Shown here in pieces: positions 41,886 through 64,000 of a stretch of DNA of 64,000 bases. This DNA comes from Elsinoe ampelina (lineage: Eukaryota). Every line of letters begins with the position of its first letter. Within the stretch, counting starts at the first letter, position 1. Below the pieces are notes generated by a model. The model saw nothing but the letters and a program-made list of their open reading frames with translations. It did not search any database and was not told the DNA's origin. Position numbers and translations under genes: made by a program. The stretch lies in contig ML992502.1 in the NCBI GenBank assembly GCA_010093995.1, positions 1,458,635 through 1,522,634 on the forward strand, written 5' to 3'.

Positions 41886-44800
41886 TAGGGCGGGGTTAGA
41901 GCGGCTAAAGGCCGACCTCAGTGCTAGTATAGAGCTATTCTTAGTAGGTTAGTACCTAGTACTAAACTAAATAGTACTAGCTCTATACCCTACTATATTA
42001 GCACTAGTACTAGTACTACGCCGAGCTATACTAGTACTAGCACTATACTATAGTTAAGCAAGAATAGTACTGCACTATAATAGCGCTATACTACACTATA
42101 ATAGTACTATACTAAATTAGTACCGGAGTTAAATTCTAGTATTATACTACGTTATAGTACTATACCTTAGTTAGGCTTTAAGGTAACTATAGCTACTATA
42201 CTATACTTTAGTATTATAATAAGTCTATAGAAAGGAAATTTAATAGTCTAGTCTATATAAAAATAAACCTACCTATTTCTTATAGTCTATTCTTATAGCA
42301 TTATAGAGGAGAGATCTTACTAATTAGAGAAAGTAAGTAGGTAGTACTTATTATAATATTTCCTAGTAAGCTAAGAGTCTTTCTATATAATAGTATAACG
42401 CTTAGCATAGATAGCGTTAAGATTATAGTCTACTATAGTTATTAGTATAAAGTATTATATATTCTAAATATATAGTTAATATACCTTCGAAATATTCTAC
42501 TAGTATTGCCTTACTTACTTCCTAGAGACACTTAATAGTATCTAGCGTAAAGCGTAAATCTCTACTTATAAGTGTTAACTTAATATCTTATATAATATTA
42601 CAAATAATGTAGAAGAAGAGAAGCTTATACATAAGAAGTTTAGTTATCTTCTAGTAGTAATAAATCTCTTAGAGAGTAATAGCTATACTATATTAGATAT
42701 AAGACTATAAGAATTTACTATAAGAAACTAACTGCCTAGCTTAAACCTATAGCTCTTTACCTAGCGAATTTGTCTAGTTAATACTAGTCTAAATTTTGTT
42801 ACGTAACTACCTATAGTAGGCTTTTTAGTAGCGGTTTTCTTAGCGCCTTACTTTCTTAGCTTTGCCCTTTTTAGAGGTGTTACTTGCTTCTTATAAGCTA
42901 TAGCTACGTAAATTTGTTAAATTAATTATTAAAATTTGTTTATAAAGGTAGAGAAGAGTAAGGCGAAAATACTAAGAGTAAGATATTAAGCCTTATTAAG
43001 GAATTTATAATAGCATATAGAATGTAATTTTTGTATTATTATTCTCTACTATAATAACTTTATATTAACAATATTAACAACTTTATATTAGTATAATAAT
43101 AGAATTAATACCTATTATTACTTATATTTCTAGCTACTCTATTTACTATATATATAAGAAATACTAAATCCTTCTCTCTTTATCTTCTCCTTATAAAACT
43201 TATATCTTATATCTTACTCCTTATTATACTTAATATTCTACTTTCTCTTATAAATTACTACTAATTCTTGATCTATAATATCTACTAATCCTATAGATTA
43301 GTAAACCTTTAGTAAAGAGAAAGAGATAACCGATACTCTAGTAATTAAGACTAAAGAAATAACTAAGAAAGAGAAAGTAATCCTTACTATAATAGGAGTA
43401 ATTCTTATAGATACTTCTTATAGTTAAATACTAACTAGACTATAAGGTTTTAATTCCGAGGCTAATAAGATTAAATACTAGATTAAAAATCGCTCTTAGA
43501 ATACTAGAACTCCTTACTATAGCTACTCCCTTAGAATTCTATAGTAGAAAGTATAGCTTAGTAATACTTAGCGAGCTATTTAGTAAAGAGATTATACTAT
43601 ATAAGCTAGTATAGAGGAGAAAGCCCTTACTACTACTAGTAATACTAATTACTCTATAAAACATATACTTAAGGCAAAACTTAAGAACTCTAAGAAATTC
43701 TAAGTAATATCTAATAAGGAGAAAGAAGCTACCTTTAATATAGCATATAAGAAGATAGTAGAGACTTACTATTATACCTAGTAGAGTAGTATATTTCTTA
43801 TAGTATATTCTTATAGTATATCTACTAATTCTATATAGGGGAATAGTTAAAGGACAAGTTTATATCTATCTACTAAAAATAGAGTAGTATCTATAAAGCT
43901 AATACTCTTCTTTACTATAAGTAACTCCTTACTAATTATATAAAGAAGGCGCTCTATAACAAGATAAATATATTTCCGAATTACTAAGTAAAATGTCTTC
44001 TTAGTACTAGCAAAATTCTTAAGAAATAGACCTATAAGATCTACTATAATAGTGTTAACTCGCTATATAATACTAGTAACTATAACGATAGTAACTAAGC
44101 TAAGTTTAAGAAGTTTATTAAGAATATAACACCTACTAAACTCTAAGTAGTATAGGTAGATAATTAGGTATATATTATTTCTTATAGTTGTTTCTTATAG
44201 TTATATACTAATCTATCGAAGTAAATACGAACCTACCTCTAAACTAGAATTTAAGTATAAGAATAATAATATTTTACTTAAATCTAATAATTACTATATT
44301 AAGTATAGTAATAATAAGGTTAAAGAAAAAGTTAAGAACGACTCTAAGATTAAGAACCTTCTTAATAAGGAACCTAACAAGTATAAGACTAAGGAAGTAG
44401 CTAAAATATACTATAAAGTAGTTACTACTAGGGACTTTAACAATTCTAATAAAGAGAATTAGAATAAAGATAATAATAAGGTAATAGATAAGAGTAATAA
44501 TAATAATAAGGAGAGTAAGAGTAAGAATAATATAGATAAGAATAAATAGATTAACCTTAAGTTAGGAAAATTAGACTATAGTTTTAGTAGCTTTCTAGTT
44601 CTATACTATTAAAAATTTTTTAATCCATAAATTAAGAGTAGCTGACAGATTCTTATAGAGTATTCTTATAGTCTTCTACTCCTTATTATATAGCTAGTAA
44701 TATTCTATATTTCTACTCTTAAAATGTTAGTGTTTAATAAAGACTTAGTCGATTCTTAACTATAGATGCTCTTAGAAGTTGTCGCGCTACTACTACCTCT

Positions 44801-47800
44801 CCCCTACGAGCTTAAAGAGTTTTATGTTAATTGCTAGAATAATCTATCCTTTACTTAATTCTATAAAACTATTAAAATTATTAGCTATCTACTCTACTAA
44901 CTAGATATACTACTTAAAGAATAGCTAGCTATATAAGTCTAGAAAATATAGTAGCCTATAACATTAATAGGTAGCGAATTAAGAGTTAGCGGAATACGAA
45001 ACCTACTAAACTAGAATTCTATAACCTACTATAGAGTTATTTAGGCCGACTTTAATAAAGGTGCTAAGCTTACTAATAGAACACCTCTTATGTATTGTCT
45101 CTACTATAGTAGAGCTTTATAACACCTAATAACAAACTCGATTAGTATTAAACACCTAATAAAACATCTTAGATGCTAAAGCTACTAGAATATAAAATCT
45201 CCTAGCTATAAACGATTAGTAGCTTAGATAGCTCTAACATAATTAAAAGTAAACGCTACTAGTACTATATCCTATATACTATAATTCTCCCTAGAACAAT
45301 TTAAAAAAGAGCTTATTAAGGTCCTTATTAATTATAATTAGTTATTCTAAATAGTCGACAATTTCTCCTTTCTTTAATTTATATATTTCCTCTAGCTATA
45401 TACTAATATTCTAGGTCGGACGCGGGCCTTAGGGCTATTAAAAGAGTACTATAAGGACATTTAGTCTAATCTTCTTACTAATCTTAGTAGTTAGACAAAA
45501 GTTTTAATTATGCTAGATAGCTAGTCTATAAATAACTATCTAAGTTTTGTAGCTATAAAGGTATACTATATTAACGATAACTAGTAAGTATATAAGTGCC
45601 TACTAGATTTTATACTAATTAGTAGATAGTATACTAGAGTTACGCTCGGCATAGAACTACTAAGGGTTCTAAATGAAAAAAAGATTAATATATACCTTCT
45701 TACTATTATAGTAGACAATGTAAGTAATAATAATACTCTATAATCTAAAGTATAATAAGGTCTTAAGAAGAAGAGTATATACTAGTCCTCTATTAAGAAT
45801 GTAATTCTATATCTAGCCTATATAATTAATCTTATTATATAAGATATTATTTAAGCCCTATAGCTAGAAACTACTAAGGATAATAAGAAAGCTAATAAGC
45901 TTAAGAAGTAGCATCTCTATAATATTTAAATAACTCTATTAGTTCTAAATTTCCTCTATAAAGTAAGTTATATTTCTTATAGTTCTTTCTTATAGTTTTT
46001 TAACTAATTTTAAAGCTCTATATAATTTGTATTATAATTAACTAATCCCCTTAACGCTACTAACACTTTAAATCTCTTTAAGTGTATCTACCTCCTTGTA
46101 AATAACTCTTAGTTATTTAAGATATTTATACCTATTAGAACTCGATATATAATATATATAAGTAAGCTATTAAACTTTAACTAATTATTAATAAATAGCT
46201 TAACGCGGAGATTATAATTGTATATAAGCCTTAAACTAATAAAGCGCTAGCTAATTAAGACATAGCATCTATTAATTACATAGATATAAAACGCCTTTGC
46301 CTTAGCTATACCGAATAGGTATATCTAAAGATTGTTATCTAAATACTAAAGAATTTTAAGAATATAACTAACTAGCTAAGTTAGTCTTATACGCTATTAG
46401 TACAATATATATAGCTTATATATAATACTCTTTTCGACTTCCTTAATGTAGTTAAGTCTACTTAGGAAGAGAATAATAACTTAGACTAGCTATTAGTCGT
46501 GCAAAATATAGCGAAAGCTAGTCGTACTAAGCTTTCTAAGTATTATAAGCGAACAAGTAGAGGTTAAGGTTTCCTGTTTAATTATAGTATAATCTTAGAT
46601 CTAACTTAGAAACTTAGTACGTACAAGTATACTTTATAGGAACTATATTTTAAATCGCTTTACTATAAATAGTTCCTTAACTACCTTAATTACTATAATA
46701 ATAACTACTCTTCTTAAACTACTCTCCTATCTCCTCTACTAGCCTTGTCTATTACTTACTAGTTTAAGAAGCCTTCCTTATTAAATACAAGGAGTAGCTT
46801 TATAATTCTAACTAGTAAGACAAGAGGTTAATTACGTCTATTTATTAAGATATTAAGACTTAGAAGAAGAAGAAGAAAAGCTAGTATATAAAGCATATAT
46901 AATATCGAGAGCGGAGCAGCCGGAAGTCTAGGCCGTAATACTAAGATTACATAACTAATCTAAACTAGATCCTAACTGAATCTAGTTCGTATCTATCTTA
47001 TATTACTACCTTCTCTCTTAAGCGCGTTTACTCTTAAACGCTATTATATATTATTTATTAATCTATTTTAGCCTTAGCTTATCTATATAAGAGTCTAAAT
47101 AGTTACGTAGCACGTTAGCTACTCCTTTAAGATTGTTAATTAGCCACTAGGTAAGATCCTCTAGATAGTCTTTCTAGCTTATATAAGTAACTAGCTTTCC
47201 TCGTAGTAAGCGTATATTAATTATATTGTCTACCTTATACTTCTCTTTACTATTAACCTCTATCGGAGGTAGTTCTTTAAAGGCTTAGCCTAGTAAGGGG
47301 TTGTTCGAGTGTTTAGTAAGTAGGTTAGTGTAAAATACTAAGTAAATCCTTTATAGAGAGGCTAGTAAATTAAGCTTATATACTAGTAGTAATTGTTTCT
47401 TAAGAATCTTATAGGGACCGACATGCTTTAGTAGTAGCTTTAGATTGCCTTATAGCTAGAGGTTCTTCGTTAATAGCTAAACTAAATTGCTAGCCTTAAA
47501 CTCTATCGGCTAGTAGTGCTTATTAGCTTATTCTACTATCCGTAACTATATAATAGCGAGGTTAGCCTTAGTAATAGCTAGTGCCTCTTCTAGTTACTTA
47601 GCAAGTGTGTAGATATCGACCTTATTTAGCTTAGCTCTTATTAACAGTACGTTAGAAGGGGGCTAGAAGCTTAGCCTTAGCTTATACTCTCTAGTAACCT
47701 CGAATAGCGATAACTTAGTACTCTCTAATAGATTAATATTAGTAGAGAATTCTACGACTAGTAGAACAAGTGTCTAATTACTAAAGCATATAGTATATAA

Positions 47801-50800
47801 ATAGATAACTCGCTTAAACTTGCAATTTATAACCTCTAATTAGCTATCTGTTTATAGATGCCCTATAGTAGATAGTTTAGTAGTAATCTTTAAGATTTAG
47901 TAGAGCCTCTTCTATACGTCGCTAACGAACTAAGGGCTATAATCTAAGGTAATACTATCTAGTAGACTATATAGTTTCTACACGTAGAAGAACAATAGCT
48001 TAGTAGTCTCGAATACTAAAGTACTACCTTCTCTAGAGAAGTATAGGATTAAGTGCTATTCCTTAGATAGGTAGTCGACGACATAGAGCACTACGTTACA
48101 ACTATCTACTAAGGGTAGACTAGTAACGAAGTCTATAGTAATATATTACTATAGTCTTACTAGAATAGGTAATAGAGAGAGGAGACTAGCTAGTAGGCTA
48201 TAGCGAGCCTTTAACTGTTTATAGTTATAGTAGTTAGTAATAAACCTCTTTACGTTACTATCGCATCTAGAAATATAGAAGGTAGTTTTAATTATAGTAA
48301 ACATCTTAGTAGCTTCCCTGTGTGCGTAGTCTTTTAATATATAAACCCCTTAGATAACTTTTACAGCTATAGAGAAAGGCATAATTAATCGGCCGTTAGC
48401 CTATAGTATCTCCTTCTCGATTATAATATTAGTCGACGGCAGCTATTTCCTCTTTAGGAAGGCCTCTATTATACAGTAGATGCCGCGAACTGTTTTAAAG
48501 TTAGAGTCTCGTAAGTTAGCTTTAGCTACTTTATTAAACAATAGTAAAGTTTGCTCTCTTAAGGTCGAAATAGGTGCTATATAGGTGCCTAGCTTACGAG
48601 CCGAAATAGGCGGCAAACTAGTTCCTAAACTAGGTCCTAGTTTAGAAGCTAAACTAGATAGTAGTATAGGTAGTAAACTAGACAACGAACCGGTTCTTAG
48701 TTTAGCTTAAGTTGCGAATCTAGTTCAAATGCGGCCTAGATTTAGTTCGTTAATAATACGCTAATTAAGCACTTTATGTAGTAATAGCGTCTAGCGCAAG
48801 TTAGAGTTCTCCTTCGAGCGTAGTATATCTCTATTCCTTATTATAAGGGCGTCGGCTTTGCCGTTAGCTACGCTAGGCCTATATATAATTTTAAAGTTAA
48901 ACTACGTAAGGTAGAGGGCCTAGTATACTTAGCGGCGTAATAGCTTCTAAGTCTTTATAAAGTGTATTAAGGATTAGTAGTTAGTAAGAACGTAGATAGC
49001 CTTATTAGATTAAGTACTTATAAGCTTAGAGGCCTACTCTTCGAAGGCTTAGACGATAGCTAGTAGCTCCTTGTCGTAGATAGTATAGTTACGCTCGGCT
49101 TCGTTTATAGACTTACTAAAAAAGGTAATAGGCTAGAGGACGTTAGACTTATTATATTATAATAGAATCTCTATAGTAGTAGTGTTAGAAGCGTTAGTCT
49201 CAAGGACTATCTACTTTAAGCAATCGAAATACACAAGGATAGACATACTTATAATAGTGTACTTTATATAGTTAAAGGCAGTAGTACATTTGTCGTTCTA
49301 TAGCGTAGTATCCTTCTTAAGTAGGTCGTTTAATAGCTTAGCGATAGTGCTAAATCCCTTAATAAAGCGGCGATAGTAGCTATAGAAACTAATAAAGCTT
49401 CTTACCTAAGTAGTATTACTAGGAGCTAGCTATTTCTAGGCTTATATAGCTTCTATCTTCTTTAGATCCATTTTAACTCTATCTTAGCTAATAATAATAC
49501 CGAGATACTTTACCTCTATTAGGTAGAACTTGCTCTTCTTAATGTTAGTATTTAGGCCTAATCTATAGAGCCTCTAGAGCACTAGCTTAATATACTCGGC
49601 GTACTCTCGGTAGGAGCTATTTATATAGATAAGAATATTATCTAGGTAGATCGACACGAAGCGCTCTAGTATATTAACAAAGTTATAATTTATAAACCTC
49701 TACTAGACTATAGAGGCATTAGTAAGGCCGAATAGTATTACTAGCTACTTAAAGTTACCTATATGTATAGAGAACATAGTAAGATCTTTACTATTAATAG
49801 AGTTATAGAGATAGTAGAAGGCTTAACAAATGTTAATCTTACTAAACTATTTAGCCTTACTTACGCACGTAAGTGTTTCTTCGATAAGAGGTAGAGAATA
49901 GACATCTCGCTTAGTTACCTTATTAAGGCTATAGTAGTTAACGTAGAGACAAAGTCCTCTATCTAGCTTATAAATAAAGAGAATAGGTAAGAAATAGCTA
50001 GCGGAACTTAGTGTAATAAAGCCTTTATTAAGATGTTCTTAGATAAATTATTCTACTATATTAAGTTCTTCTAGCGATAGGTAGTATAAAGGCTCTATAC
50101 GTAGTAGCTTAGTACTATCTTTAAGTATAATATAGTTGTTAAAATCCGGCTAATACTAAGGGAGCGTATTAGATTATTCTTTAGAGAAGATATTAGTAAA
50201 CTCCTATAACTCCTCTAGGAGAACTACTATAGAATCTAGTTCTAGCTCGGAGGCTATCTAGTAGTAGTCTTTAATATTCTTTACCGAGATTATAAACATC
50301 TCGTTCTCTTAGTATTTAGCTACTAATATAAAGGTAGCTACGCTAATAAAGGTAATAGTTAGCTCTTCTTATTTAGTGTTACTTACATAGGTAGGTATGT
50401 AGAAGAACTTATATATTAACTAAGTACTATAGGAGATTAGCTTAAACTCTCTCTAATTTAGCTTAAAGTTTAACCTAAGAGCTAGTAGCCGATATAGTCT
50501 AGTTTGTCCTAACTTAGTAGCTAAGCTAGAATCTAGTTAGCGAGCTAAACTAGAACCGAACTAGTTCTAAACTAGAATAGAGATTTTACTAAGCTAGATT
50601 CCTAAATCTAAGCTAGGCTTAGATCTAGATTCTAGTCTTTTAATTAGCTACGGTAGCTCTTACTTAATAACGACTAGTAAAAACTCTTCTTTATATATAA
50701 CTTAGCTATACTTATAGTCGATAGTAGCCCTATTAGCCTTAAGCTAGCTAAGGCTAAGAATAATGTTAAATCGGCTAATATCTATAATACGAAAGGTAGT

Positions 50801-53800
50801 AAGGTTATTTAGCTTACTAGAAACGGTAGTAGTAAGGGGAACGCTATATATAACTTACTCTATTAGAACACCGTTATAGGCTTAAAGCTAAATAGAGCTA
50901 GCTAGTACTACGGGGTAGCCGAAGCTCTTTAGCTTATTAAGAATATTATAATTAACTACGGCGCTAATAAGCGTACTAGTGTTAATAAAGGCTTAAAGTG
51001 TAATAGTGTAAGAGTAGTTATAAGGGTCGTAAATAGTAATAGGAGTTATAATAGCGGGAATGTAGTAGCTAATAACGCTATTTAGTAACTATATACCTCC
51101 GGATCTATCTCGAATTACTCTTATTTCGCTAGAGAATAGAACTTATCCTCTAGCTACTTATTTCTCTAGCTAGAGTAGCTAGTAGACTTATAGTCTATTT
51201 CGGGGTTAAACTAAGGCTAAACTAGATCTAGTTTATAGGCCGAACTAGTATCGACCTAGTTACTTAATTTAGCTAAGCGATTCTAAAGCTACTATATCTC
51301 CTCTATAGCGCTAATACGTACGGGGTATATAGCGGCGTAAGTAGCCTTCTCTAAGGCGCTAGCTATACACTTAGTAGAGATATATCTAGGCTTACTATAT
51401 GTGTAATAGGTAAGTACTAGAGCTAGACGAAAAAGCTACGGAGTACCTCTAGTAATAGAGTAGAAGGTAGGTAGAGCTATAGGCGTAGAGGTAGAATAAG
51501 GTACGTAAGTAGGTATAATAGTAGTATAGCTTATAGCTAGTATAGAACGTAAAGCCTAAGTACGCTTAGTAATAAGGTTATTCTATTAGATATTATAGTT
51601 AGTAGTATAGGCCTTAGTAATAAAAGTAGTAAGGTTATTAGTATCGTAGTTAACTAGAGCATTATATAGCTTATTAGATATCTTCTAACGGATCTAGTAT
51701 AGCTACTTCTCTTTAGCGATCTTAGCGTAAAGAGCATACTTATTAAACTCACTAACAAAGGAGTTAAATATACTATTACGCTAGAAGAGGTTAGTAAACT
51801 AAGTACGTATAGTAGCCCTATAGTTAGAATCCTTAAAGCGCTAGGCTAGGAGAGTAAGAACCTCTTTAACGCTAATAACGTTATTACTAGCTAAGTCTAT
51901 AATAAGGGTATAGGCTTCTCTAGAGAGGCGTAAGTATAGATAGGTAAACTAGGTATCTCTCGTAGAGAAATAATCTATATTAGCGCGTATCTTATTCCTT
52001 ATCTAGTGCTTAAAGACCTTAAACTACTCTAGTGTACCTATACTAAAGATAGTAAGGTCTAGTATCTTTTCTAATAAGGTAGAGCTACGTATAGAAAGAG
52101 CTAGTATACTACGCTCTATTTCGTTTTTTAGTCGGTTTACCTTAGCCTTAAGCTTTTAGATTTTGTCTAGGTAGTAAGTAGCTTAGGTAGTAACGCCGTC
52201 GGCATAGGACTAAGATATGTCTAGTTCGAATTAGAGGTTACTAAGCTAGGCCTAAGTAGTATCTAACTTATAGTAATAGTAGAGAGCGTTAGTATAAGTG
52301 CCTTTTACCTACGCGGTCTACTTATTATAGAAGGACTTAATATAGTTAAATACGTCTCTTAGTGCCTATATACTATACTCTTTCTATAGCTTCTTAAGGA
52401 GTATAGCGTTAGAGAGAGCAAAAAGATTATAGTAGAGAGAGTAGATAGAAGTGTTATTATTGTTAGGGATAGATTAAGGTAGCTTACTTTAGTAGCGCTC
52501 TTTGTCGCTATAGTTAGATCGAGCTATACTTAGTATAGTTAGTTATAAATAAAACAGTGTAAAACGTTAATACGTAATAAAGAGAATATTAAAATTTTTA
52601 GCTAGTAGTCTACTTCCTTTAAGAGTCGTCTATAACTCGACTTATTACCTTCTTCTTATATCTTTAAGGTTTATAGTATTAACCTATATAGTAGTAGTAA
52701 GGATCTATTATAGTGTGCGCGGGAACTACAGTTATAATAGCTTCTTCTTTAATTCTTTAATTCTTTATAAGTGGTAGTTATTAGTAGTTATATAAGTAGT
52801 AGAATAACTAGATAATTTAATAGCTCTATCGCTTAGTTACGGTCGTTACGAAGTCTCGATATAGTAATTCTAACTAGTAAGATAAGAGGTTAATTGCGTC
52901 TATTTATTAAGATATCGAGACTTAGAAGAAGAAGAAGAAAAGCTAGTATATAAAGCATATATAATATTAAGAGCAAAGTAGCTAGAAGCCTAGGCTATAA
53001 TACTGAGATTACATAACTAATCTAAACTAGATCCTAACTAAATCTAGTTCGTATCTATCTTGTATTACTTTATATCTCTAGTATCTAGCTAAGATAATAT
53101 ACTTTCGTAAGAGTAGAGCGACGTCTATATAATAAGAATAGAAGAGAAGAATTACCTTAGAACTCTACCTATATAGGAAACATTAGAATTTAATATTCTT
53201 TCTTAGTAGAAAGAAAATAAGCACTTATTCCTACGACTAGCTCGTGTTACTTATAATGTTCTTATAATACTAATCGCTAGCGTAGGTATTAAATGTGTTT
53301 TTAATATAGCGAAGAATGTTATTAGCGATTAAAGGCATAAACTACTTCTGTAGATAATCTAATAAATTATAGTCTCTAAGCTAGTAAAAAACAATCTTTA
53401 AAACATTTAATTAGCTAAGATAGACAATTTTACTACTGCTAACAATAATGTTAATAGCGGGATAGACAGTATAAGCGACAACTTTAGAGATATTACTACC
53501 TATAGTTTAAGTAATAAAGAGATTAACGAGGAAGAAGAGCATAATAAGGACAAAGATCTACTATATAACATTACTAAAGTTAGAGGCTAGTATTCTAAGC
53601 GTATCTAGTTAATAGCCTCTAAGTAATAACGCTCTTATAGTATCTATACTAATATCTACTCTAAAGCACTTCTACGCGTACCTTCCCTATTACTATATAT
53701 AATTCTACCTACTAATACTAATAGTCTCTCTTTGTTAGCTACCCTAAGGAAGCTTATTCCCTTGCCCGCTAGTATCTTTAATATAACTATATTTATATCT

Positions 53801-55980
53801 ACGTTAGTTATACTAGATTCGCTTATAAAAACGTTAACGAGGAAATCGTATAGATCGACTATAATATAAAGGCTAAAGCTATAACTAATCTCCGCGCTAC
53901 TTCTCTTATTATTAACCTCGATAACTACCTCCGCTATAGCACCTATAACCTTAGCTAACTTATTACTAACGCTACTCTCTACGCTATTACTAATATTTAC
54001 CTTATTATACTTCTAACTTCCTTACTAGGTTTAAGCCTAATAATAGTTAGGTTACTTTCTAGAATAACACTAATAGTAAAGAGAACAACGAGGGAGATGC
54101 TTCTATCGCTAGTACTAATAGTGCTACCTAGAGTAGTAATATAACTACTAGTGTAGCTAGAGATAATATAAACACTTCTACTTTAAGAGCTTATATGCGC
54201 CGTCGTTATAGTTAATTTTAGTCACTTATAAGAAGAGGTAATATAATTAAGTCTTTATAAAGTATAAGTCTATATTATTAATAACTATCTAAAGCTATTA
54301 GCCCGCTAACGCTTTAACTACGCTACCTTAATTAGATTAGTTATTAGAAGAAACACTATTGTTACTATCGTCGATATAATCTAACTTCTCTTACTTACGT
54401 TTAATATTATAGCGTATAGTAAAGAGTAAGAGTAGATCTACTCTTCTATCAAGAATAAGACGATTAATAGTGCACTATATGTCGATTAGGTCGAAGATGT
54501 CGTTAGTCTATAAGATATTATACTAATATTCGTTAGATTATAGAGAAAGATTAGATTAGAAACACCTATAAAGTTATAAGGGGTATCGTAAGTATAGTAG
54601 GCTTTATAGCGAAGTACTAAACCTCTATAGTTATTATAGATATATTTAGCTTAGATTTTGTAGTTGTTATTAAAGTTAAGATATATAAGAGTTATATAGT
54701 AGATATAGGCTTTATACTAACGTAGGTATAAGAGCCTAGCGTAGTTACTAGGAGTTATCTTATAAGGCTAAAAGAGAATTAGATCTACTAGGTCGAGGTA
54801 GAGTTAAGCGTAAGAAGAAGACATTATAGAAGAAAGTATCGAACGATAAGAAAGAGAGGTTTAAGAGAAAGAAGAAGAAATAGTAACTAAAAGGTATATA
54901 TATCTAGCGTTACCTATTATAAGAACGACAATATAGATAATAGCTATTATCTATTATAAAAAAACGACAATACTAACAATAGCTATTATCGAATAATAGC
55001 TATTATTATACTAAGGGATATAAGTAGATTATTAGCTAAGTTACTTCTTTCTCTCCTTAGAAACATTTAAATAACTATCTAGTATGCCTTTACGTTACTA
55101 TAGTATAACTTATACTAATAGTTGCTAGAATTTAAGCAAATCTACTACTATGTCTACTACTCGCCTTTCTATTATTTATTAGGCTAATATTACTTACTAT
55201 AAATTTATTAACAACCTTTAGGTAGAGATTAAGGCCCTAGATAGCCTTATACTTACTATTAACTAGTAATCTAATAGTATTAAGGCAATCCGTAACTATA
55301 CTATAAGTTAGTAGAAAGGCTAAACTACCTAGAACTAATTGTTCTAGTCTTAGACTCTACCTAATAGCTTTAGTACTCCGGTTTACTAGTTAAGAGTTAT
55401 AATTTATATAAGGGTAAACTTACTAAGGATAGAATGTCCTCCGGATAAAGTAGATAATAAGATAATAAGGTATTAGTTCTAGGTAGTATATAGCTTGCTA
55501 GCTAAGTATATAAAATAGACTTGTAGGAGTTATATAGATAATGTTAATTAGGTTAATCTTCTATAAATTACTATTAGGTCGTAATTGTATATAAGGGTTA
55601 ATAATTAATAACTTTTACTTCTCTCTAGTATCCTTTACCTACTATAACTTTAAGTGTTTAGAGCGGAAAAGTAATAAGAGTTATAGGATATAGCAGTTAC
55701 TATAAGAATTTACTATAAGAATAGCAACCCTAGTATAGTGCTAGTAAGAGTACGCTAAGGACTTAATAGCACTATACTACTTATCTACTAACTTAACCTA
55801 GTACTATACTATGTCTAGAATATATATAACCTAACCTATATCTAGTACTAGTATAGTGCTATTATAGCTATAGTATAGAGCTAGTGCTAGTGCTACTAAG
55901 CCCTTAGTAGCACTACGCTAGCTAGAGGCCGACCTAAACCCTAGTATAGTACTAAACCTAAAGGGGCTAACTCTGCCCTA
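41886..55980 (+). mobile_element. hAT DNA transposon (about 7.8 kb without insert), transposase split by Gypsy B
   Basis: TIRs TAGGGCGGGGTTAG (41886) and CTAACTCTGCCCTA (55980); 8-bp flanks GTAACTAT/ATAGTTAT differ only by transitions; BED-like region near 45090, LDS*S (DxW) near 45515, YLAYIINL (CxAH) near 45810, dimerisation domain ILS**KENKHLF...IASVGIKCVFNIA at 53190-53310. Confidence 0.88.
46803..53067 (-). mobile_element. Gypsy B: full-length RIPed LTR retrotransposon
   Basis: 203-bp LTRs 46803-47005 and 52865-53067 (TA..TA = RIPed TG..CA); TSD CTTTA (46798-46802, 53068-53072); PPT 47006-47019; RT VSIYLDNILIY near 49625-49657; RNase H TIYDKELLAIV near 49055-49087. Confidence 0.93.
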
Positions 55981-56794
55981 ATAGTTATACTACTTCTTTC
56001 TCTAGAGAAGTCTACTTAATAGAGTCTATCTCTATAATATTGTTTATACGAGGTATAGGCGCCTCGCTAATAGAGTTCTAGTTGTCTATAGGGTCTAATA
56101 GATTACAACTATAGGGAGTAATTAGAACTATTAAAGCCTTATATTAAAGCTATATATATTATAATATAGAGAATGCCTATCTAACTAAATAGTCTATTAG
56201 TAGTAGAACTAATTACTGTTAAGCTCTAGGCGCAAGCGCTACGTAGAATATTTAAGTACGTTACGTAAGCGGGACTAGCCGCTACTAAGTGCCGCTCTAA
56301 TACTAAGCCCTTATAGTAGTAGAGAAAGTATTTTTAGAATTTACTTCTCTTAAGCTAGTATAGAAGCTATAGAGTAGCTAGAGATATATAGAATATATAT
56401 ATAGGTAGCTAATTAGTAGTACTAGAAGTACGTAAGTATAAAACTATATTATAAGCTTAGTTTAAATACTTCTAAAAATATAGAATTTACTAGTTAAATA
56501 GACTATTCTAAAAGAGCTTTTACTAAGCTATAGCCTACATACGCTTCTAGTACTACTTTAAAATTAAGTGGCAAATTCTCCCCTACCCCCGTAAAAAGTC
56601 GTAAGACCTTTTTTTGGTTCCGCGCCAAGACTGGGTGGCTCGTTTGAACTGAAAAGCCCTGTACCTTCCACCGCGAAGCCCCCTGATCTATAACACCACT
56701 GTCATCGCGGAACACCTCTGCTCGAGGCGTTGTCACCTCTTCACGACTGTCACCCTCATGACTAGGTGGAGGCATCTGCTCGCGTGTAATTTCG

Positions 56795-59445
56795 ATGGAA
56801 GGCGCCGAGATGGGAGATTCGGAGATGTCGGGACTGAGGTCTTCCGTCTCAAAGGTCGCGTCAGAACTTGAAAGCGATGTGACTCTGGACAGCGATGATG
56901 AGATGGAACAGGATTCGTTAGCTGCGATGGACATCATGTTTGACACGTCGCACCCGGTGTTATACGACCGCAAGAATCACCAAGAGATGACTCGGCAGCA
57001 TGAACAATGGTCGCGGTATGCATGAAACACAAGTGGAGGAAGATAGCACTAATGGCAGCATAGATTCGCACAGGCTCACCTCAAAGAACATCTTCGCCAG
57101 CTTGAACCGTTTTCATTCCTACCATCTTTCAAAACCTTGCAGGCGTGGATTCTATGGCAGATCAAAACCAGGAGGGGCAGATTCGAGAGAAAATTAGGAA
57201 GCGTACTGTCAGCAAGATTTGGCATTGTACACAAAGGAACATTCTCAAAGGCTGCCGGCAGCAGCTGACTGAGGCAGAGCGGAAGGTCATGTCGGACGTA
57301 AGTCATACGACTCCGCTACATGGTTCCGCGAGCTGATGAACAAGTGGATTATGAAGGTCCTCCCGCGCAGGAAAATGTGTAGTACGAAAAGACTAGCAAA
57401 GGCTGTGGCAGGCCCCGAGACTGCAGCGGATCTCGTCGTATACCTTTGGGCGCATGATGAAGACGAGATGCATCCAAGGATGAGGCTGCAGCTGTCTCTT
57501 CTACTGCTCATTCTACTATACAATGGATTGCGCCCAGGCGAATTCATGGAATCAGTCCACTACCCGGATTCTAATGAAGGACTTTTGTACGGCGACTTTG
57601 TCTTGATCTTGGTCCGGAATGCTCATCGAGACGATCTACGTTGGCTGCTAGAGGTCCGGCTGCGCAACAGGAAGTGGAGACGACACGACGAAGGCCTCAA
57701 GTCAGTCTGCCAAGAAGTTTCCGCATCCGTGGATTTGCTGACATACGTAGCGAATGGCACCTTCTAAAAATGGATAGTAGGAGGCCTCACCTATGCCCCG
57801 TCAGCCATTACATTGGGTTGGCTCTGGCCGACAATGCACTTGAAGGCATCTCGTCTGTCAGTGAGTTGGAGCGCGTGAGGTTGTCCGATACTGCCGTGAG
57901 CACCAGAATCAGCTGCAAGCCAGAGATGGAGCGCATTCCCGTCATCCGCCGCATGACAGAAGAGACGCGGAGACAAGTCTCGGCAGACAAAATTATTCGA
58001 TATGACGCTTTTAAAGACATGCTACGCAGACTTGGTGCACGCGCGGGCTACACCATCCGATTGACACCATATCAATTCAGACGAGGACATGCAAACATTC
58101 TAGACTCTGCTGTAACGCCTGCAGAACGTCGGCAAAGAATGGGTCACGTAGACGACACTGCGTTGAACGCTTACATCTCTCAGATCTCCGGCGTCGACAC
58201 GCAAGCCATCATTCATGGTGAGGCTCAAGAGCAGGATCTGTTTCACAAAGCCCGCAGTATATCCTCCTGGCAAGATTTCGGTAGTTCTTCGTCGTCAACA
58301 TGGCAAGCGGGGCTGGAAAGGAAAGTCAAGCCAAGGAGAGATGCGTTGAAGCAGTTTCGGGAGGAGTCAGCATCACGACAGACGCATACGATTATCCCTC
58401 TTGACGATGTCAATGAGGAGGGATTGCCTCCTGGCAGCGATGGCCTGATCGTGCCCTTTGAACGACCAGCGCCATCTGTTTACATGCGTGCAATTCTTGA
58501 AGCGGAATCAGATAGGAAGCAAATTGTGGGCTTCATGGATGCCCAACCGAGCAGTCTAGAGGCCCGGATCTCACCCTTTGTCAGCCTGTCATCGACCTTC
58601 CACAATGAAACCTACTATCCTCGCACTAGACCTGATCGCAATGGAGGTTGTCCTCATTGCATGTACAAAGGACCACCAAGGTAACATCGTTCACTCCATA
58701 TCCACCATAAGCTAATTGTGGCAGTTCCAAGCCAAAGAGCTCGGCTGTTACTGCTTTCAAATTGCATCTGCTGCAGTGTCGATTGAAGGCTGACGCAAAG
58801 CTTCTTGATAGCTCGACAAATAATGTTGGACAACCACAGCGATGTGCATGGCAATGTTGTGGATATTTATTCACATTCCAGAAAGGTCCAGAGCATAAGA
58901 AGTTCGACATGGACCATCTCAAACGCCACATCCAGCGCGCTTGTTCGCAAGCCGATGGCCGCATGGCTTGTCTATGGACCGACTGCAAAGAATCCGTCCC
59001 AGACAAGTCAAGGCTCGAGAGCCATCTGGCTGAGGTACATTGCGGCACCTCTAGAGAGCACACCGCCAAAATAGAGTACTGCTTCCAGCACCGGGAGTAC
59101 TACTCATCAAAGGCAGCCTGGTCAGCACACTGCACCCAGCACTTGAAGGATATGGGAGACAAAGACTTATTCTGCGGAATTTTCACTCGGAGGGAGATCG
59201 TCATATGCGCCGGTATCTGTATCTTCTGTATTGGGGATCAGAGCCTGAGCGCAACTCAGCGATTCAGACAATTCTCCGCCTGGGACGACCTGAAGCTGCA
59301 CGTGGAGCAGCACATGCAAAATTTTGCGTCAAGGATTTGCCCGCATCCGCGCTGCACTACCAACCTGAGTACCAAGGGGGACGCGCAAGATCATTTCTGG
59401 AACGTGCACGGGATGCGAGCCTCCAAGACTCAATTGAACAAGTAG
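56795..59445 (+). CDS. DUF3435 tyrosine recombinase (Starship captain-like) with C-terminal Cys/His zinc fingers; apparent -1 frameshift near 57175
   Basis: YNGLRPGEF, LLYGDF, RNRK, HLCPVSHYIGLALADNA, LRRLGARAGY..LTPYQFRRG, RQRMGH...AYISQISGVDTQ; C2H2-like CLWTDC..HLAEVH and CPHPRC..HFWNVH; introns 57016-57063, 57298-57343, 57701-57750, 58681-58724. Confidence 0.88.
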
Positions 59446-59601
59446 CTGAGAGCATGTAGACCATCCTCATGCAACCGTGGCATCACGATTTCAGAGTCTA
59501 ACTGTGTGATTGGACCAATGCCCCAGATAAATAAATGATAAGGGCTACACCCCTATTCTTGCATCGCAGTGTAAGCGGGGTGATTGCTTATTGCTTTAGA
59601 A

Positions 59602-59607
59602 TATATA
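59602..59607 (+). promoter_or_regulatory. TATA-like element about 32 nt upstream of the tRNA 5' exon
   Basis: TATATA at 59602-59607; position only, function untested. Confidence 0.4.
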
Positions 59608-59638
59608 CAACTTTAATCACCCAGTTTCACATAACACC

Positions 59639-59829
59639 GGTTGTAAGTCTCGATCCAGGTGTACCTCCAAATTACGCTATCTGACTTAAGTAAGGCGTGG
59701 TGTAGGGGGTAAGTCTCTTGGCAGAAGAGGTTGCCGCATGACTGACCCCTTCAAAGTAGCATGCGACGTTGTGGAAACCTTGAGTTCAACAACCCCGTCT
59801 CGACCCCGGTTCGATTCCGGGCGCAGCCA
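59639..59829 (+). tRNA. tRNA-His(GUG) with two spliceosomal-type introns (59643-59694, 59709-59756) and one canonical intron (59775-59794)
   Basis: Joined exons give 71 nt: GGTTGCG/CGCAGCC acceptor stem, GTGT/GCAT D-stem, CGACG/CGTCT anticodon stem with loop TTGTGGC, CCCGG-TTCGATT-CCGGG T-arm, discriminator A; A-box TGGTGTAGGGG and B-box GGTTCGATTCC present. Confidence 0.85.
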
Positions 59830-59863
59830 GCTATTAGGCTCCTTCTGAGAAAGAAGGGACAGC

Positions 59864-59869
59864 TTTTTT
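59864..59869 (+). terminator. Putative Pol III terminator (T6) for the tRNA
   Basis: TTTTTT 35 nt downstream of the discriminator, after a short hairpin CCTTCT-GAGAA-AGAAGG. Confidence 0.6.
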
Positions 59870-60033
59870 AAGGGGCCGTCTCCTTCGATCTTGGTGTTTT
59901 GGTGGAGTTGGTCTTTTTTGGCGTAATTAGCGTAAAAAGTGTAAAATTGGCGGCGGCCGAGGCCGAGAGACAGGGCTAAGACACTCTCACGGCTAAGGAA
60001 GGCGGTAAGAAGTCGCGCAAGTGTCGCGTTTAG

Positions 60034-63000
60034 TGTTACTATAGAACGTAAGGTTATAGTACTCTATACCAATAAGATTAGCACACTAAATTAAGTAGTT
60101 ATAGATAATTAATCGCGTATGCTCCTTACTAGTCTCCTCTCTAGTGCTTTACTTACGTAGTTAAAGGATATATACGAGCCTCTAGAGATTACTAGTGACT
60201 ATCGGCTTAATACTCGAGGCTTTAGCCTTAACTAGATTAACTAGAGTATTAAGGTTAATAAGGACTATAAGCGATATATGTAGTGTATAGTAGCCTTCTT
60301 CTACTATCTCTATAAGCGCTTAATAATAACAACTCTAGCTCTTAATAACAGCTATAAGTTACTTACTTACTATAAGCTCTTTATTACTCTCTATATTCTT
60401 GCTACTAGCGCTAGCTATCGGCACATTACTACTAAGGTTAGTATAGTTATCTAATTAGTTAGCTAATTCTATAATGGGAACTATAAACTTATAGCTAGTA
60501 GATAGATGTTAGAGATATATTGTTCTAGCTATAATTCTACATAGTATATATAGTAGTAGTTTCTAACTCTCTATAGAGAGGTTAGAAATTTATTGTTATA
60601 TTTATATAGTATATACTTCTCCTCTATTACTTCTCTATCTTAGAGACATTATACCTACCTTATCTAGATACTCTATTACAATTTAAATTCCTCTTTAAAC
60701 TATAGTTAAGATAGCCTAGGTTAATAGTCTTAATATAGTTAGCTTAATAAAGGACTAACGGATTATCTACTATAGATACTATATCTACTAGCTTAGTAGA
60801 AGCTACCTAATTAGAACCTATTCTCTCTAATGTATCTAAGGAGAAGCTACGTACTACCTAAGAAGAGCTAGCTTAACTCCGCTAGAATAGAGAGTATATA
60901 GAGATCTAGAGAGCTCTTATAATTAAGTATAAAGGACCCCTTTAGAAGAGAACTTATATTAATATATAGGAATAGTAAGAGAAGTCTAATAATAATAATT
61001 AGTTATACTAAGATAGTATCTCTCGAGGAACTCCTAATCTAGATATCTCTCTAGAGATACTTTCTCTTTAGATTAACCTTAAGAAAGTATAAAAGCTAGA
61101 GGTACTAGAGAAACTAAAGAGATATATATACCTTACTAACGTAAAGGTATTTATCTAATTATACTACGCTATCTTTAGAGTCTATAAGTATATCTATCTT
61201 ACTAGTAGAGATTAAGCCTAGTTTATAGCTAGCTATCTAAATAGATTCCTCGCTATAATATAAGAGAGCTATATTAATAATATAAAACCTTAGGCTAAGA
61301 ACTAGAGCTACTTTTAAGAATAGATTAAAGATTGTATTATAGATAAGAGTAACTAAGCTCTAAAATATATCTAACTATTCTATAATAGTGCTTAGAGGTC
61401 GAACTAATTAGTTGCTAAGTTTGCCTAATACCTCGAAAAGTACGCTAAGAAAATTAGTAATACTACTATAGATAAGGCTTAGTTTATAAGCTGCCTCGTT
61501 AACGGCGTAAAGCCTATATATTAATAGAGCTATATAGCGCTCTAAGACTCTCTAAGGGGTAAAGACAAGGCTATCTCCTACTTTACTTATATTAAGAGTG
61601 TATTTAGAAGCTAAGCTATCTCCGAGATAATATATATCTCTTACTACTTTATAGATAAGCTAAAGAGAGGCAACTAGAAATTCTAGAATAACAAAAATAA
61701 GAAAAAAAGAAGGTTTAAAGACTCTACGTCCGGGGTTAATATAACTTCGATACTTTGTTGCCTTAACCTCTTAGAGGTAAAGTGCTATAGGTGTAAGTAA
61801 CTTAGCTATATCTGCCCTAACTACCCTTATAATAAGATAAAAAACTAAATACTCTAGCTATAGACCTCGCCTCTATATAGCTAGGAGTATCTAAAGGAGG
61901 TCCGCTACTAAGCTAACTAAGGATAGATATTTACCTTAGTTAGAAAGGTAAGGCTCTATCTACTAATTACGTAGCTATATCTCTTATAGATTTAGGAGCT
62001 AACATTTGTTTTATTAACTACTATTACGTAAAGGAGAAAGAAGTTCACCTATATACTAATAGCGTAATAAGAGTAAAGTCCCTTAACTAGTATAAGATAC
62101 ACTTATATAGATACTACTATCTTATAGTAGAAGCTACTAACTACTATAGCGTTATAAAGAAGATTCGCTAGTACTTCGAGTTAGTAGAGATAAAGAGATA
62201 TAACTTAGTACTAGGCTAGATATAGCTCTTTAGTATTAACCTAGATATCGATTAGTAAAGCTAGAGGTAGAGACATTACTCTACTAGCGTTAATATAACG
62301 CTCCTAATAGCGGAAGAATTTGCTAAGGAAATGTTAGAGTAGCTATAGTACTATATAGTTTTCTTAAATATAATCTATAAAGATAACACTTTAACGTTAT
62401 AGAGTAGACTTCTAAGCTAGCTCTATAACTTCTTAGATGTATTTAACAATAAGAAAGCTATTACTATACCTCCTCCGGCGCTATATAACTACTTAATCGA
62501 ACTTATTAAAGGGAAGTAACCTCTATAGAAATCTATTTACGCCCTCGTAGAGACAGAGCTAAGTACTCTTAGAGAGTACCTAGCTAAGAATTTAAAGCTA
62601 GGCCGTATTTGCTACTCTACTAGCTCTATAGAGGCTTCTATTCTCTTTATACCTAAGGCTAATAAGTCGCTACGTCTCTATATCGACTACTAAGGTCTTA
62701 ATAACGTCTTAGTAAAGAACTACTATTCTTTGCCCCTTATTACTAAGATACTCGATAGAATCTAGAGGGCTAAGGTATACTTAAAAATAGATCTTAGAGA
62801 TATATACTACTATATCTAGATTAAGGGAGGCAACGAATAAAAGATAGTATTCTAATATAGATATAGATATTTTAAATATATAGTTATACCTTTTAGCCTC
62901 GTAAACGCTTCTACTACCTTCTAGTTATATATTAGCTAATACCTCGATAGCTTAGTTAATTACTACTATATTATCTATATAGACAATATTCTTATCTACT

Positions 63001-63430
63001 TCTAAGATTCGTTATAGTACCGTAGGTATATTAAAGAAGTTCTAGTATAACTTAGGAAGTATCTTCTTTTTATAAAGGCTTCTAAGTACGCCTTTAAAGT
63101 TAAGGAAGTATAGTTTCTAGAATATATTCTAGGCCTCGAGAGTATCTCGATAGAGCTCTAGAGAGTTTAAGCTATTATAGACTAGCTAGAACCTACTTCT
63201 CTAAAAGAACTCTAGATCTTTCTTAGATTTATAAACTTTTACTAATAGTTTATTAATAGCTATATAGAAATAATAAGACCTATAATATAACTACTTATAG
63301 AGAGCAAAAATAGAAAATAGGTAGGTCCTTTCTACTTTACTAATAGTGCTAGGCAATTATTCTAACATCTTAAAGACTACTTTATAACTACTTCTCTTCT
63401 ATAGTTTTTTAACAAAAGTAAGAATATAAG
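60034..63430 (+). mobile_element. Gypsy C: RIPed LTR retrotransposon (5' LTR, gag, protease, RT), interrupted near 63430
   Basis: AT-rich from TGTTAC at 60034; gag knuckle KCYRCK*LSYICPNYP near 61780; protease LIDLGANICFI near 61982; RT LRLYIDY*GLN, IPFSLVNA, YIDNILIY near 62975-63000. Confidence 0.88.
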
Positions 63431-63432
63431 AA

Positions 63433-64000
63433 TTAGAGTAGTTAGTAGGTAGTAGGTATTCTACTACGGGTAGGGTAAGGTATTATTTCTTAGCACAGTA
63501 GGTATAGGTTAAGTAGAGTATTCTTAGTAGTAGGTATAGTAGAGGTTAGGTAGTAGGTATTTCGCGTGCCTAAATACTCTACCTACTATAACCTACGCCT
63601 ATACGTAGGTAGGTATTACGTAAGTAATAGAAGCTTCTCTTAATTCTCTAATATAAGACATTATATAGAATTTAAAATCAGGAAGAATAGTAATAATTAT
63701 AGTCTCTAATTATAGCATCTTATACGCTTAGTTATCGTATTTATAAATAGTTCTATCCTATGCCCTTATAGACAATCTTATACGCTTTACTAGAGGCTTA
63801 TTATTATTAATATTATTGTCCTTCTCGTAATTACTTAGAACAAAGTTACTCTCTTAAGAAGGTAGCTTAAGTAAGTTATCTACCTCGTCTATAGTAGTAT
63901 CTTTATAACTACTATTAATAGTATCTTAATAACTACTAGTAATAACATTGCTACTTAACAAAGAGGGACTTATTATAAGCTTTATAATAATAAGCTACTA
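63433..64000. mobile_element. Probable further RIPed element inserted into Gypsy C (runs off window)
   Basis: Pol similarity stops before RNase H; clustered GTAGG (RIPed GCGGG) short repeats resemble DNA-transposon subterminal motifs. Confidence 0.4.

Follow-up and report, generated by a model that had tools for sequence, protein, structure and literature searches.

Toward the right-hand end of the window, that is, the whole 64-kb stretch of Elsinoe ampelina DNA analysed here and to which all coordinates refer, lies an intron-bearing gene which had been proposed, in a sequence-only reading, to encode the captain recombinase of a Starship transposon, placed in an island free of RIP and 194 bp upstream of an intron-split tRNA. 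Two options had been offered: either a captain-only or derelict element landed just upstream of a host tRNA, or the unusual tRNA is the first cargo of a Starship extending beyond the window. The question raised by this locus is which of these options, if either, describes it, and in what state the captain is found. The coordinates of the features discussed below are collected in Table 1; two Starship papers (PMC9156397 and PMC11162782) are drawn upon for comparison.

Table 1. Features of the recombinase locus, in coordinates of the 64-kb window.
Feature	Coordinates	Strand	Remarks
Upstream RIPed AT-rich repeat block	33500..56569		faint retrotransposon integrase trace at 48152-48349 (-)
Un-RIPed island, GC about 0.51	56570..60035		unique core about 56665-59870; from composition and RIP indices
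GC-normal stretch, also elsewhere in the genome	56633..56664		32 nt, the sole part common to other contigs; ends in GCCCTGTAC
Transcript	56709..59461	+	seen in runs X3, X6 and X7, from three studies, as spliced contigs 2556-2564 nt long
Upstream ORF	56795..57268	+	141 codons once intron 57016-57063 is spliced out; the recombinase's ancestral N-terminal part, left stranded
Intron 1	57016..57063	+	48 nt, GT..AG; within the stranded N-terminal part
Annotated CDS, 716 aa	57154-57297, 57345-57700, 57751-58680, 58725-59445	+	DUF3435 domain, then Cys/His module
Frame break, A run	57190..57193	+	homology of relatives resumes one base out of frame
Intron 2	57298..57344	+	47 nt
Catalytic residues	57531..58174	+	codon places from sequence and exon map
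R111	57531-33	+
K158	57672-74	+
Y274/R277	58070-81	+
H299	58145-47	+
Y308	58172-74	+
Intron 3	57701..57750	+	50 nt
C-terminal Cys/His module	58649..59442	+	residues about 467-716; CxxC, several C2H2-type fingers, terminal CPHPxC..H..H motif
Intron 4	58681..58724	+	44 nt
tRNA-like stretch, not callable	59691..59829	+	A-box-like run near 59698-59708; 48-nt GT..AG insertion at 59709-59756
T arm	59805-59821	+	acceptor-like 3' stretch 59822-59828; T run 59864-59869
GC-normal stretch, also elsewhere	59871..59968		right edge of the unique core
Downstream RIPed AT-rich repeat block	60036..64000		extends to the end of the window

The Recombinase and Its Family

As judged from its sequence and from a structural model, the gene at 57154-59445 is that of a DUF3435 tyrosine recombinase, with the catalytic residues and a predicted fold of the Xer/Cre type. 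The Pfam profile search suggested in the sequence-only reading, which had described a DUF3435-like gene, returned PF11917 (DUF3435) on the + strand, with E=2.8e-26 and a score of 92.8 bits on exon 57752-58681, the cut-off being 25.8, together with a second match on exon 57345-57698 (E=6e-4). The R, K, YxxR, MGH and Y motifs named in that reading are all present, as R111 within LRPGE, K158, Y274-x-x-R277, M-G-H299 and Y308, with Y274 taking the place in the YxxR box where His is usual; the columns of R111, K158 and R277 do not vary among 28 aligned relatives, at least 90% of which have Y308, and H299 and Y308 are invariant in an alignment of four sequences. Invariant in the same alignment are the Cys/His columns of the C-terminal module, and the zinc fingers proposed there find their counterpart in the matches of this module to solved C2H2 fingers (GLI at E=1e-10, AEBP2, ZNF410, KLF4 and, weakly, TFIIIA). 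The best Foldseek matches in the PDB to the AF2 model of the 716-aa protein (pLDDT 83.5, pTM 0.77) are XerH, XerA, Cre and Flp, with a probability of 1.00 and a best E of 4.9e-4; by sequence profile the match to XerA is weak (E=0.084). The 716-aa protein is 100% identical to a hypothetical protein of Elsinoe ampelina, and translation of the spliced RNA reproduces the annotated protein (P0001) exactly.

The recombinase gene is already known, as an entry in the published starfish catalogue: it is listed in the supplement as elsamp1_256687, a "tyr" of family 10, and family 10 is Voyager in Table 1 of the same paper (PMC11162782). It is on this published table that the placement in family 10 rests, and with it the designation of the gene as a Starship-captain-type tyrosine recombinase is confirmed. 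The catalogue contains 559 elements with boundaries and 10,212 "solo" YRs, many of which its authors expect to be pseudogenes (PMC11162782); among the Starship papers listed, none mentions Elsinoe in its main text.

Enzymes of the Voyager-captain kind recombine DNA at short target repeats, which they cut and rejoin by means of an R-K-(H/Y)-R-H-Y active site, the C2H2 finger array probably reading the target, and close members of the family insert into 5S rDNA. A search for related loci seeded by the four-sequence alignment gave three loci, two of which are one and the same (L001 and L002, on two metagenome contigs) and one of which is too short; L001/L002 is alone among the relatives in having sufficient flanking sequence, and in it a recombinase 38% identical to that of E. 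ampelina is separated by about 0.5 kb from a truncated 5S rDNA gene, which is upstream of it, so that the association of DUF3435 recombinases with Pol III genes put forward earlier holds for relatives. The nearest relative, from the sister species E. batatas, is 53-56% identical and itself truncated (415 aa), and Elsinoe species each carry several divergent paralogues.

The Island and Its Surroundings

The contrast between the island and its flanks is sharp in GC content, which is 0.50-0.51 at 57-60 kb versus 0.24-0.36 on both sides, as well as in both RIP indices, TpA/ApT being 0.55-0.60 in the island versus 2.0 and 1.94 in the flanks and (CpA+TpG)/(ApC+GpT) 1.37-1.43 versus 0.18 and 0.17; the description of a RIP-free island between two heavily RIPed blocks is therefore accurate. 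No second copy of the island occurs within the 64-kb window and, in the DNA run X1, the contig covering 56635-59899 has a depth of 130, versus a summed depth in the thousands for the flank contigs, which supports the single copy that had been suspected; this single-copy state would have spared the gene from RIP. At the right edge, a contig of X7 ends loosely before 59871, and X1 shows an increased summed depth over 59871..59968; the gene is present in every run containing the stretch. The surrounding DNA is RIP-degraded repeat, which may represent the remains of the element, transposons that inserted later, or a landing site that was AT-rich. One of the 41 flank ORFs gives a match of transposable-element type (Integrase_H2C2, E=0.0034, under the Pfam cut-off, at the integrase trace of Table 1), and the minus-strand ORF at 56506-56976 has no Pfam match.

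No boundaries of an element were found: a repeat search combined with a shuffle test, for which 4.5 kb downstream of the gene lie within the window, gave only chance-level pairs of terminal repeats, in line with the earlier failure to recognise convincing ones. A Starship-type cargo family was matched by 0 of the 41 flank ORFs (Pfam, sub-threshold hits only), and 0 of the 9 ORFs of at least 45 aa in 59880-64000 match cargo-type Pfam families, this region being RIPed and its decayed genes easily missed. At the gathering threshold Rfam detected no 5S rDNA anywhere in the window, and a relaxed cut-off of E<=10, applied around both edges, brought none to light; the left flank has no similarity to the 5S of the relative (blastn-short and local alignment) and is no more 5S-like than 473 of 500 shuffles.

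Transcription, Splicing, and the Frame Break

The four GT..AG joints of the transcript are found in all of X3, X6 and X7 and are absent from the DNA-like run X1, the depth of the transcript contig reaching 222 in X6; that runs X3-X7 are RNA is a guess, no RNA label being on record, and the splicing itself is read from the contig joints. RNA contigs do not extend over 59474-59640 or the flanks. In tblastn, the four relatives analysed in detail (P0006, P0010, P0016 and P0083) all match first the frame of the ATG at 56795 and then the annotated frame; their alignment in the upstream frame reaches about 57196-57199, and the two frames overlap at 57163-57199. Since homology runs from the ATG at 56795 and jumps frame at the A run, the annotated ORF starts behind 13 upstream ATGs of the spliced RNA and without the ancestral N-terminus. 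At the A run, which lies some 120 codons from the start of the ancestral ORF, the frame slips by one base; the first ATGs of the mRNA therefore open a dead-end ORF of 141 codons, the 716-aa catalytic ORF starts internally, and the missing N-terminal segment is that of the core-binding side. No indel is present at 57190-57193 in any of the four runs (X1, X3, X6, X7), the break being common to all, and, since X3 and X7 differ by a SNP (G>C) at 57197, the same break occurs in at least two sequence variants.

We infer that the captain is most likely inactive, or nearly so, though transcribed and correctly spliced. The 716-codon ORF is nevertheless open, its catalytic residues are intact and the depth of the transcript is not low, for which reasons the break may have arisen only recently, or some function may persist, either in the truncated product or through rare slippage of the frame on the A run.

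The Downstream tRNA-Like Stretch

The stretch at 59691-59829 is a degenerate tRNA-derived fragment rather than a working tRNA, and only its T arm and B box are clear. ARAGORN calls no tRNA in the window at default settings, with introns up to 300 nt, or after in-silico removal of the candidate insertions, and a poor "Val(aac)" with a mismatched anticodon stem appears only at 80% of its threshold; with Rfam, the gathering threshold yields no tRNA anywhere in the window and E<=10 none in 59400-60100, and the fold z-score of the stretch is -0.14. The B box GGTTCGATTCC at 59808-59818 lies in the 5-bp stem of a perfect T-arm hairpin, and the B-box motif occurs once in the window, versus 0.06 expected. 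The 48-nt "intron" is of the spliceosomal type and is not due to tRNA splicing: it bears GTAAGT..CTGAC..AG signals and is removed in one contig, the joint at 59709-59756 being found in X3 only, at a depth of 2.8, in a contig ending at 59866. By eye, a cloverleaf can be drawn with a His-like GUG loop, a 20-nt insertion at 37/38 and 3 of 7 acceptor pairs, which is recorded as a lead only.

The idea of an intron-split tRNA, from which the original interest in the locus arose, thus fails, and with it the proposal of an unusual tRNA as first Starship cargo, as the downstream sequence is not a functional tRNA. The spacing of 194 bp could not be reproduced: the stop codon ends at 59445, whereas the tRNA-like stretch starts near 59691 and its T arm at 59805. 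A tRNA is likewise absent from all three related loci, and no report of tRNA targeting was found in the literature surveyed, as far as its text was available, on Starships, tRNA genes and insertion sites.

Explanations of the Locus

On balance, the locus is probably a solitary, single-copy and likely derelict captain of the Voyager family, frame-broken yet transcribed, among RIPed repeats. Of the two options originally offered, that of a captain-only or derelict element fits better, because the frame is broken, no boundaries can be recognised and no recognisable cargo is left in the RIPed flanks; that of the tRNA as first cargo has to be abandoned.

A rather unlikely alternative sees in the gene the captain at the 5' end of a large Starship, whether intact or degraded; the body of the element would then run rightward past 64000, with a 5' boundary near 56.6 kb and the repeats at 60-64 kb nested in its cargo. 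Captains occupy the 5' end of the element (PMC9156397), and Starships often reside in AT-rich or TE-rich regions, where boundary calling fails for many of them (PMC11162782); moreover, GCCCTGTAC, at the end of 56633..56664, resembles the published Voyager target GCCCTGTATTCT (PMC9156397) and is found 45 nt before the transcript start, where the similarity between loci stops. This motif match, however, covers 8-9 nt and is post hoc, its 8-mer being present once per strand in 64 kb; no cargo-type gene is found within 4.5 kb downstream, the 5S remnant usual for the Voyager family is absent, and the frame of the captain is broken.

The open 716-aa ORF with intact catalytic residues, spliced in runs of three studies and sharing its break between at least two variants (SNP 57197), could also be taken as the sign of a host-domesticated gene, from which an N-terminally shortened recombinase/zinc-finger protein with a cellular role would be expressed from an internal start. 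Such a start would, however, be hard to reach behind 13 upstream ATGs; the closest relative, the truncated E. batatas protein, is only 53-56% identical, the several divergent paralogues per Elsinoe species are the pattern of a mobile family, and the surroundings are RIPed repeats rather than host genes, all of which makes domestication improbable.

TGTACCT occurs at 56660-56666 and at 59660-59666, exactly 3000 bp apart, and might delimit a captain-only mini-element of 3.0 kb (about 56667-59666) upstream of the tRNA-like gene, in which case a 5S-targeting family would have switched to a target of the tRNA type, consistent with the tRNA-like T arm/B box and T run downstream and with the small contig ending at the T run. 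As terminal repeats this pair was rejected, since the two end regions can be expected to share a 7-mer by chance alone, as they did in 1800 of 2000 shuffles; in addition, the tRNA is called by no detector and its acceptor stem, read by eye, pairs at 3 of 7 positions, the L001/L002 relative has its 5S gene upstream and a tRNA is found at none of the three related loci, and the smallest Starship reported measures 15,020 bp (PMC11162782), so that we regard the mini-element as very improbable. Very improbable, too, is its extension, a Voyager-family captain-only unit of about 3 kb landed beside a tRNA-His-like Pol III template whose 5' end it disrupted; if true, the C2H2 array, multi-finger as in TFIIIA, would be the module by which these eukaryotic recombinases are guided to genes of the Pol III class, a parallel to the tRNA-targeting integrative elements of bacteria.

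Comparison with Known Systems

For the solitary, probably derelict captain preferred here, the closest model is Voyager of Macrophomina phaseolina (family 10, clade 3; PMC9156397, PMC11162782), with which it has in common the DUF3435 domain, the catalytic residues and the YR fold; the 38%-identical relative shares the finger module and adjoins a reverse-oriented truncated 5S, as described for Voyager (PMC9156397). Unlike Voyager, the E. ampelina copy has no 5S remnant, no direct or inverted terminal repeats and no recognisable cargo, its reading frame is broken near the N-terminus, and its nearest named relative is only 53-56% identical. Disabled captains have been described before, namely the captain of Wallaby and the LTR-disrupted Voyager captain of Botryosphaeria dothidea (PMC9156397, PMC11162782). 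The present gene is like these in having no assignable element, a disabling mutation and a TE-rich setting, and differs from them in that a single slip affects an otherwise open ORF with spliced transcripts, instead of many stops or a transposon insertion.

Cryptons are short DNA transposons with a tyrosine recombinase, a few kb in length. The locus is unlike them in its DUF3435 match, in its assignment by starfish to the Starship superfamily, from which Cryptons are set apart by the authors as a separate superfamily (PMC11162782), and in having no multiple copies in the window or in run X1. It is nonetheless Crypton-sized, with a unique island of about 3.2-3.5 kb holding just the intron-bearing recombinase gene.

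Bacterial integrative elements target tRNA genes and leave a partial copy of the tRNA at one end. They are resembled here in that a tyrosine recombinase gene and a 5'-defective tRNA-like fragment lie no more than a few hundred bp apart. The locus is set apart from them by its eukaryotic, intron-bearing gene, with no intact tRNA partner and no matching repeat at the far end, and by a fragment that is not callable as tRNA. Such tRNA-targeting elements are mentioned in the Voyager paper (PMC9156397).

Implications

As one among more than 10,000 "solo" Starship recombinases catalogued, the gene by itself adds nothing to the catalogue. It does illustrate, on a single case, how solo captains may come to be inactive, the annotation hiding a single frame slip by means of an internal Met start, and it indicates that strong transcription and correct splicing can persist in a broken captain. 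The conservation of the multi-C2H2 module in the clade, together with the Voyager-style 5S insertion of a relative, makes the fingers a testable candidate for the choice of target in this family.

The recombinase gene and its protein

The DNA is fungal and carries a U4 snRNA gene and spliceosomal introns. The four annotated exons encode P0001, a protein of 716 aa with 100% identity to a database entry named hypothetical protein of Elsinoe ampelina, in which the HMM search with PF11917 proposed by the sequence-only reading finds DUF3435 on the largest exon (E=2.8e-26) and on the preceding one (E=6e-4). Across 28 aligned relatives R111, K158 and R277 never vary and Y308 hardly does, and in four closer relatives H299, Y308 and a long run of Cys/His columns are invariant. 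Among solved structures, the AlphaFold2 model of the recombinase (pLDDT 83.5, pTM 0.77) is matched best by XerH, XerA, Cre and Flp (probability 1.00). The C-terminal third of the family profile matches C2H2 finger proteins (GLI at 1e-10, then AEBP2, ZNF410 and KLF4) and also, weakly, TFIIIA. Given the Pfam match, the conserved catalytic columns and the fold and finger matches, the gene, motifs and zinc fingers described from the sequence alone are real.

The captain-type identity of the gene is already in print, because elsamp1_256687 (elsamp1_scaffold2, 1515788-1518076, '+') is listed as 'tyr' in the supplement of Gluck-Thaler and Vogan 2024 (PMC11162782) and as 'fam10' in a second supplement table; 256687 is also the number in the P0001 locus tag, and the catalogue entry has the length of the present CDS without its stop codon. 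The family placement is likewise that of the published catalogue, family 10 being Voyager, in clade 3 (Table 1, PMC11162782). In the part of the supplement searched, no element row was found for the Elsinoe ampelina genome; the same paper counts 559 bounded elements versus 10,212 'solo' YRs, many of which its authors expect to be pseudogenes.

Coordinates of features in the window (X3, X6 and X7 are sequencing runs with contigs over the island)
Feature	Position	Strand	Basis or remark
Coding exons	57154-57297, 57345-57700, 57751-58680, 58725-59445	+	joined translation is exactly P0001
GT..AG joints in X3, X6, X7	57016-57063, 57298-57344, 57701-57750, 58681-58724	+	contig alignment
Integrase_H2C2 trace	48152-48349	-	Pfam, E=0.0034, below cut-off
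Direct repeat, 187 bp	56129-56315 and 35500-35686		90% identity, 20.6 kb apart, near both ends of the upstream RIPed block
U4 spliceosomal snRNA gene	6054-6190	-	81.1 bits, full length; sole Rfam family above gathering threshold in the window

A frame break near the N-terminus

Relatives were placed on 56300-57800 by tblastn, four of them in detail: one from E. batatas (P0006), and P0010, P0016 and P0083. Each of these first matches the frame of the ATG at 56795, across intron 1 (48 nt, frame-keeping), to ~57196-57199, and then goes on in the annotated frame from ~57163-57200 with no residues lost; the switch of frame amounts to one base, at the A run 57190-57193. Since no indel is present at this run in any of the four sequencing runs whose contigs cover the island (X1, X3, X6 and X7), the break lies in the DNA, is not an assembly error, and is common to both variants of the locus; that at least two sequence variants exist follows from a G>C at 57197, four bases past the A run, seen in X3 and X7 but absent from X1 and X6.

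In the spliced transcript, the reading frame opened at 56795 runs for 141 codons to a stop at 57268, 13 ATGs lie upstream of the annotated start at 57154, and the annotated 716-aa product is without the N-terminal segment conserved in relatives. Arithmetic from the coordinates gives an ancestral protein of roughly 820 residues; predicted captains have a median of 812 (PMC11162782). A family-wide programmed frameshift at the A run is unlikely, because the relatives read straight through this site. The frame-broken gene would be expected, to judge from its reading frames, to yield little or no complete enzyme, although the long ORF has no interruption and keeps its catalytic residues, which counts against this expectation.

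Contigs of X3, X6 and X7, which come from three studies and are presumed to be RNA, cover 56709-59461 and carry the four GT..AG joints, none of which is found in the contigs of the DNA-like X1; a spliced mRNA of ~2.56 kb is the simplest reading. Three long spliced contigs end at 59454-59461, 9-16 nt beyond the stop codon, which points either to a very short 3' UTR or to truncated contigs.

The island and its flanks

That a RIP-free island lies between RIPed blocks, as had been described, is borne out by composition: GC is 0.50-0.51 over 57-60 kb, versus 0.24-0.36 at ~33.5-56.5 kb and beyond 60 kb up to the window end; TpA/ApT is 2.0 and 1.94 in the two RIPed flanks, 0.55-0.60 in the island and 0.58 in the gene-rich first 33 kb, the corresponding values of (CpA+TpG)/(ApC+GpT) being 0.18 and 0.17, 1.37-1.43, and 1.22. 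No second copy of the island occurs within the 64-kb window, and in X1 positions 56635-59899 stand in one contig at depth 130, as opposed to flanks whose depth, summed over all contigs, is in the thousands; both observations support a single copy. In the part of the PMC11162782 supplement searched, the catalogue tables give just two 'tyr' genes for this genome, of different families.

A repeat search found no direct or inverted repeats bounding the island above chance. A TGTACCT pair at 56660 and 59660, exactly 3000 bp apart, was rejected as the element ends, a shared 7-mer or longer being found in 1800 of 2000 shuffles of the end regions. Immediately left of the unique core stands GCCCTGTAC (56656-56664), the 8-mer of which occurs once per strand in 64 kb; the likeness of the left flank to other genome loci ends at 56664. 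The resemblance of the 56656-56664 sequence to the published Voyager target, GCCCTGTATTCT (PMC9156397), is suggestive, was noticed post hoc and is unproven. No 5S was found in the left flank by Rfam at E<=10, and the alignment score observed was reached by 473 of 500 shuffles.

Both edges of the island hold short GC-normal pieces. The 32 nt at 56633-56664, open on both strands and with raised X1 depth, also lie within other contigs that are longer (1866 nt in X3, 793 nt in X7) and in which the sequence to left and right is unrelated; the stretch 59871-59968, bordering the unique core on its right, also occurs elsewhere (an X7 contig with another left neighbour; raised X1 depth) and is too short for RIP.

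Among 41 ORFs of the RIPed flanks compared with Pfam, the sole trace is that of Integrase_H2C2, probably a decayed LTR retrotransposon; none of the 41 resembles Starship cargo, and decayed genes would be masked by RIP. The 187-bp repeat pair could represent LTR-type pieces of one old element. Downstream of the gene the window holds only 4.5 kb of sequence, and an element may extend past 64000.

The tRNA-like stretch

The 'intron-split tRNA' reported directly downstream of the gene did not hold up: ARAGORN calls no tRNA in the window by default, with introns of up to 300 nt, or after removal of one or two insertions in silico, and when its threshold is lowered to 80% it returns no more than a poor 'Val(aac)', whose anticodon stem is mismatched. 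Nor does Rfam report a tRNA, whether at its gathering threshold or with the limit relaxed to E<=10, its sole pick-up there being the T-arm hairpin 59805-59821, via tmRNA models. One B-box motif is present in the window against an expectation of 0.06, so the B-box/T-arm piece is likely of tRNA origin. By eye the stretch can be drawn with a D arm, a T arm and an anticodon arm (GUG loop, 20-nt insertion), but with only three of seven acceptor-stem pairs; its predicted folding does not surpass that of shuffled sequences (z = -0.14).

A 48-nt insertion (59709-59756) carries GTAAGT, CTGAC and AG signals, and is missing from one low-depth contig, found in X3 only (59666-59866, +, depth 2.8), whose 3' end coincides with a T run; removal of the insertion is spliceosome-type splicing. 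Oddly, Pol II-type splicing occurs here together with a B box and terminator that are Pol III-like. We call the stretch a degenerate tRNA-derived fragment in a weakly transcribed region, rather than a tRNA gene or demonstrable Starship cargo. Between the two options of the sequence-only reading, a derelict or captain-only element fits better than a Starship with the tRNA as first cargo.

Relatives and 5S rDNA

Closest to the protein are relatives from Dothideomycetes, several of them labelled 'C2H2-type domain-containing'. Among them are E. batatas KAG8625277.1 (truncated, 415 aa; 53-56% identity), two more E. batatas proteins and one of E. fawcettii, and others from Zopfia, Recurvomyces, Acrodontium, Aureobasidium and Cercospora. 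Because there are several divergent copies per species, the pattern would suit a mobile family better than a single conserved orthologue.

A metagenome scan for relatives yielded three loci: L001 and L002 represent one and the same place, and L003 is too short. The captain relative of L001/L002 has 38% identity to the present recombinase; a 5S rRNA match (L002 4612-4733, -, 39.7 bits versus a gathering score of 38; same place in L001) lies on the opposite strand, ~0.5 kb ahead of its start codon. The first ~27 positions of this copy are off the model and helix I is unpaired, which resembles the truncated 5S reported at Voyager insertions (PMC9156397). Upstream of the 5S are host-type genes (FtsJ methyltransferase, epimerase, tautomerase) and downstream are other genes, including DUF6914; the locus is likely a Voyager-family 5' boundary in an uncultured fungus. 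No tRNA was found in any of the three loci. The family habit of 5S rDNA targeting, seen in this relative, is however absent at the Elsinoe ampelina copy.

Conclusions

Of what was first observed, the gene and the island stand and the tRNA does not. The gene, a Voyager-family captain already in the catalogue, has a broken frame yet is transcribed, and lies stranded among RIPed repeats; as such it is ordinary for the Starship field. Its remaining interest lies in a Pol III-linked landing site, an unproven possibility; in a frame break concealed by the annotation; and in the conserved finger array, a candidate target reader.
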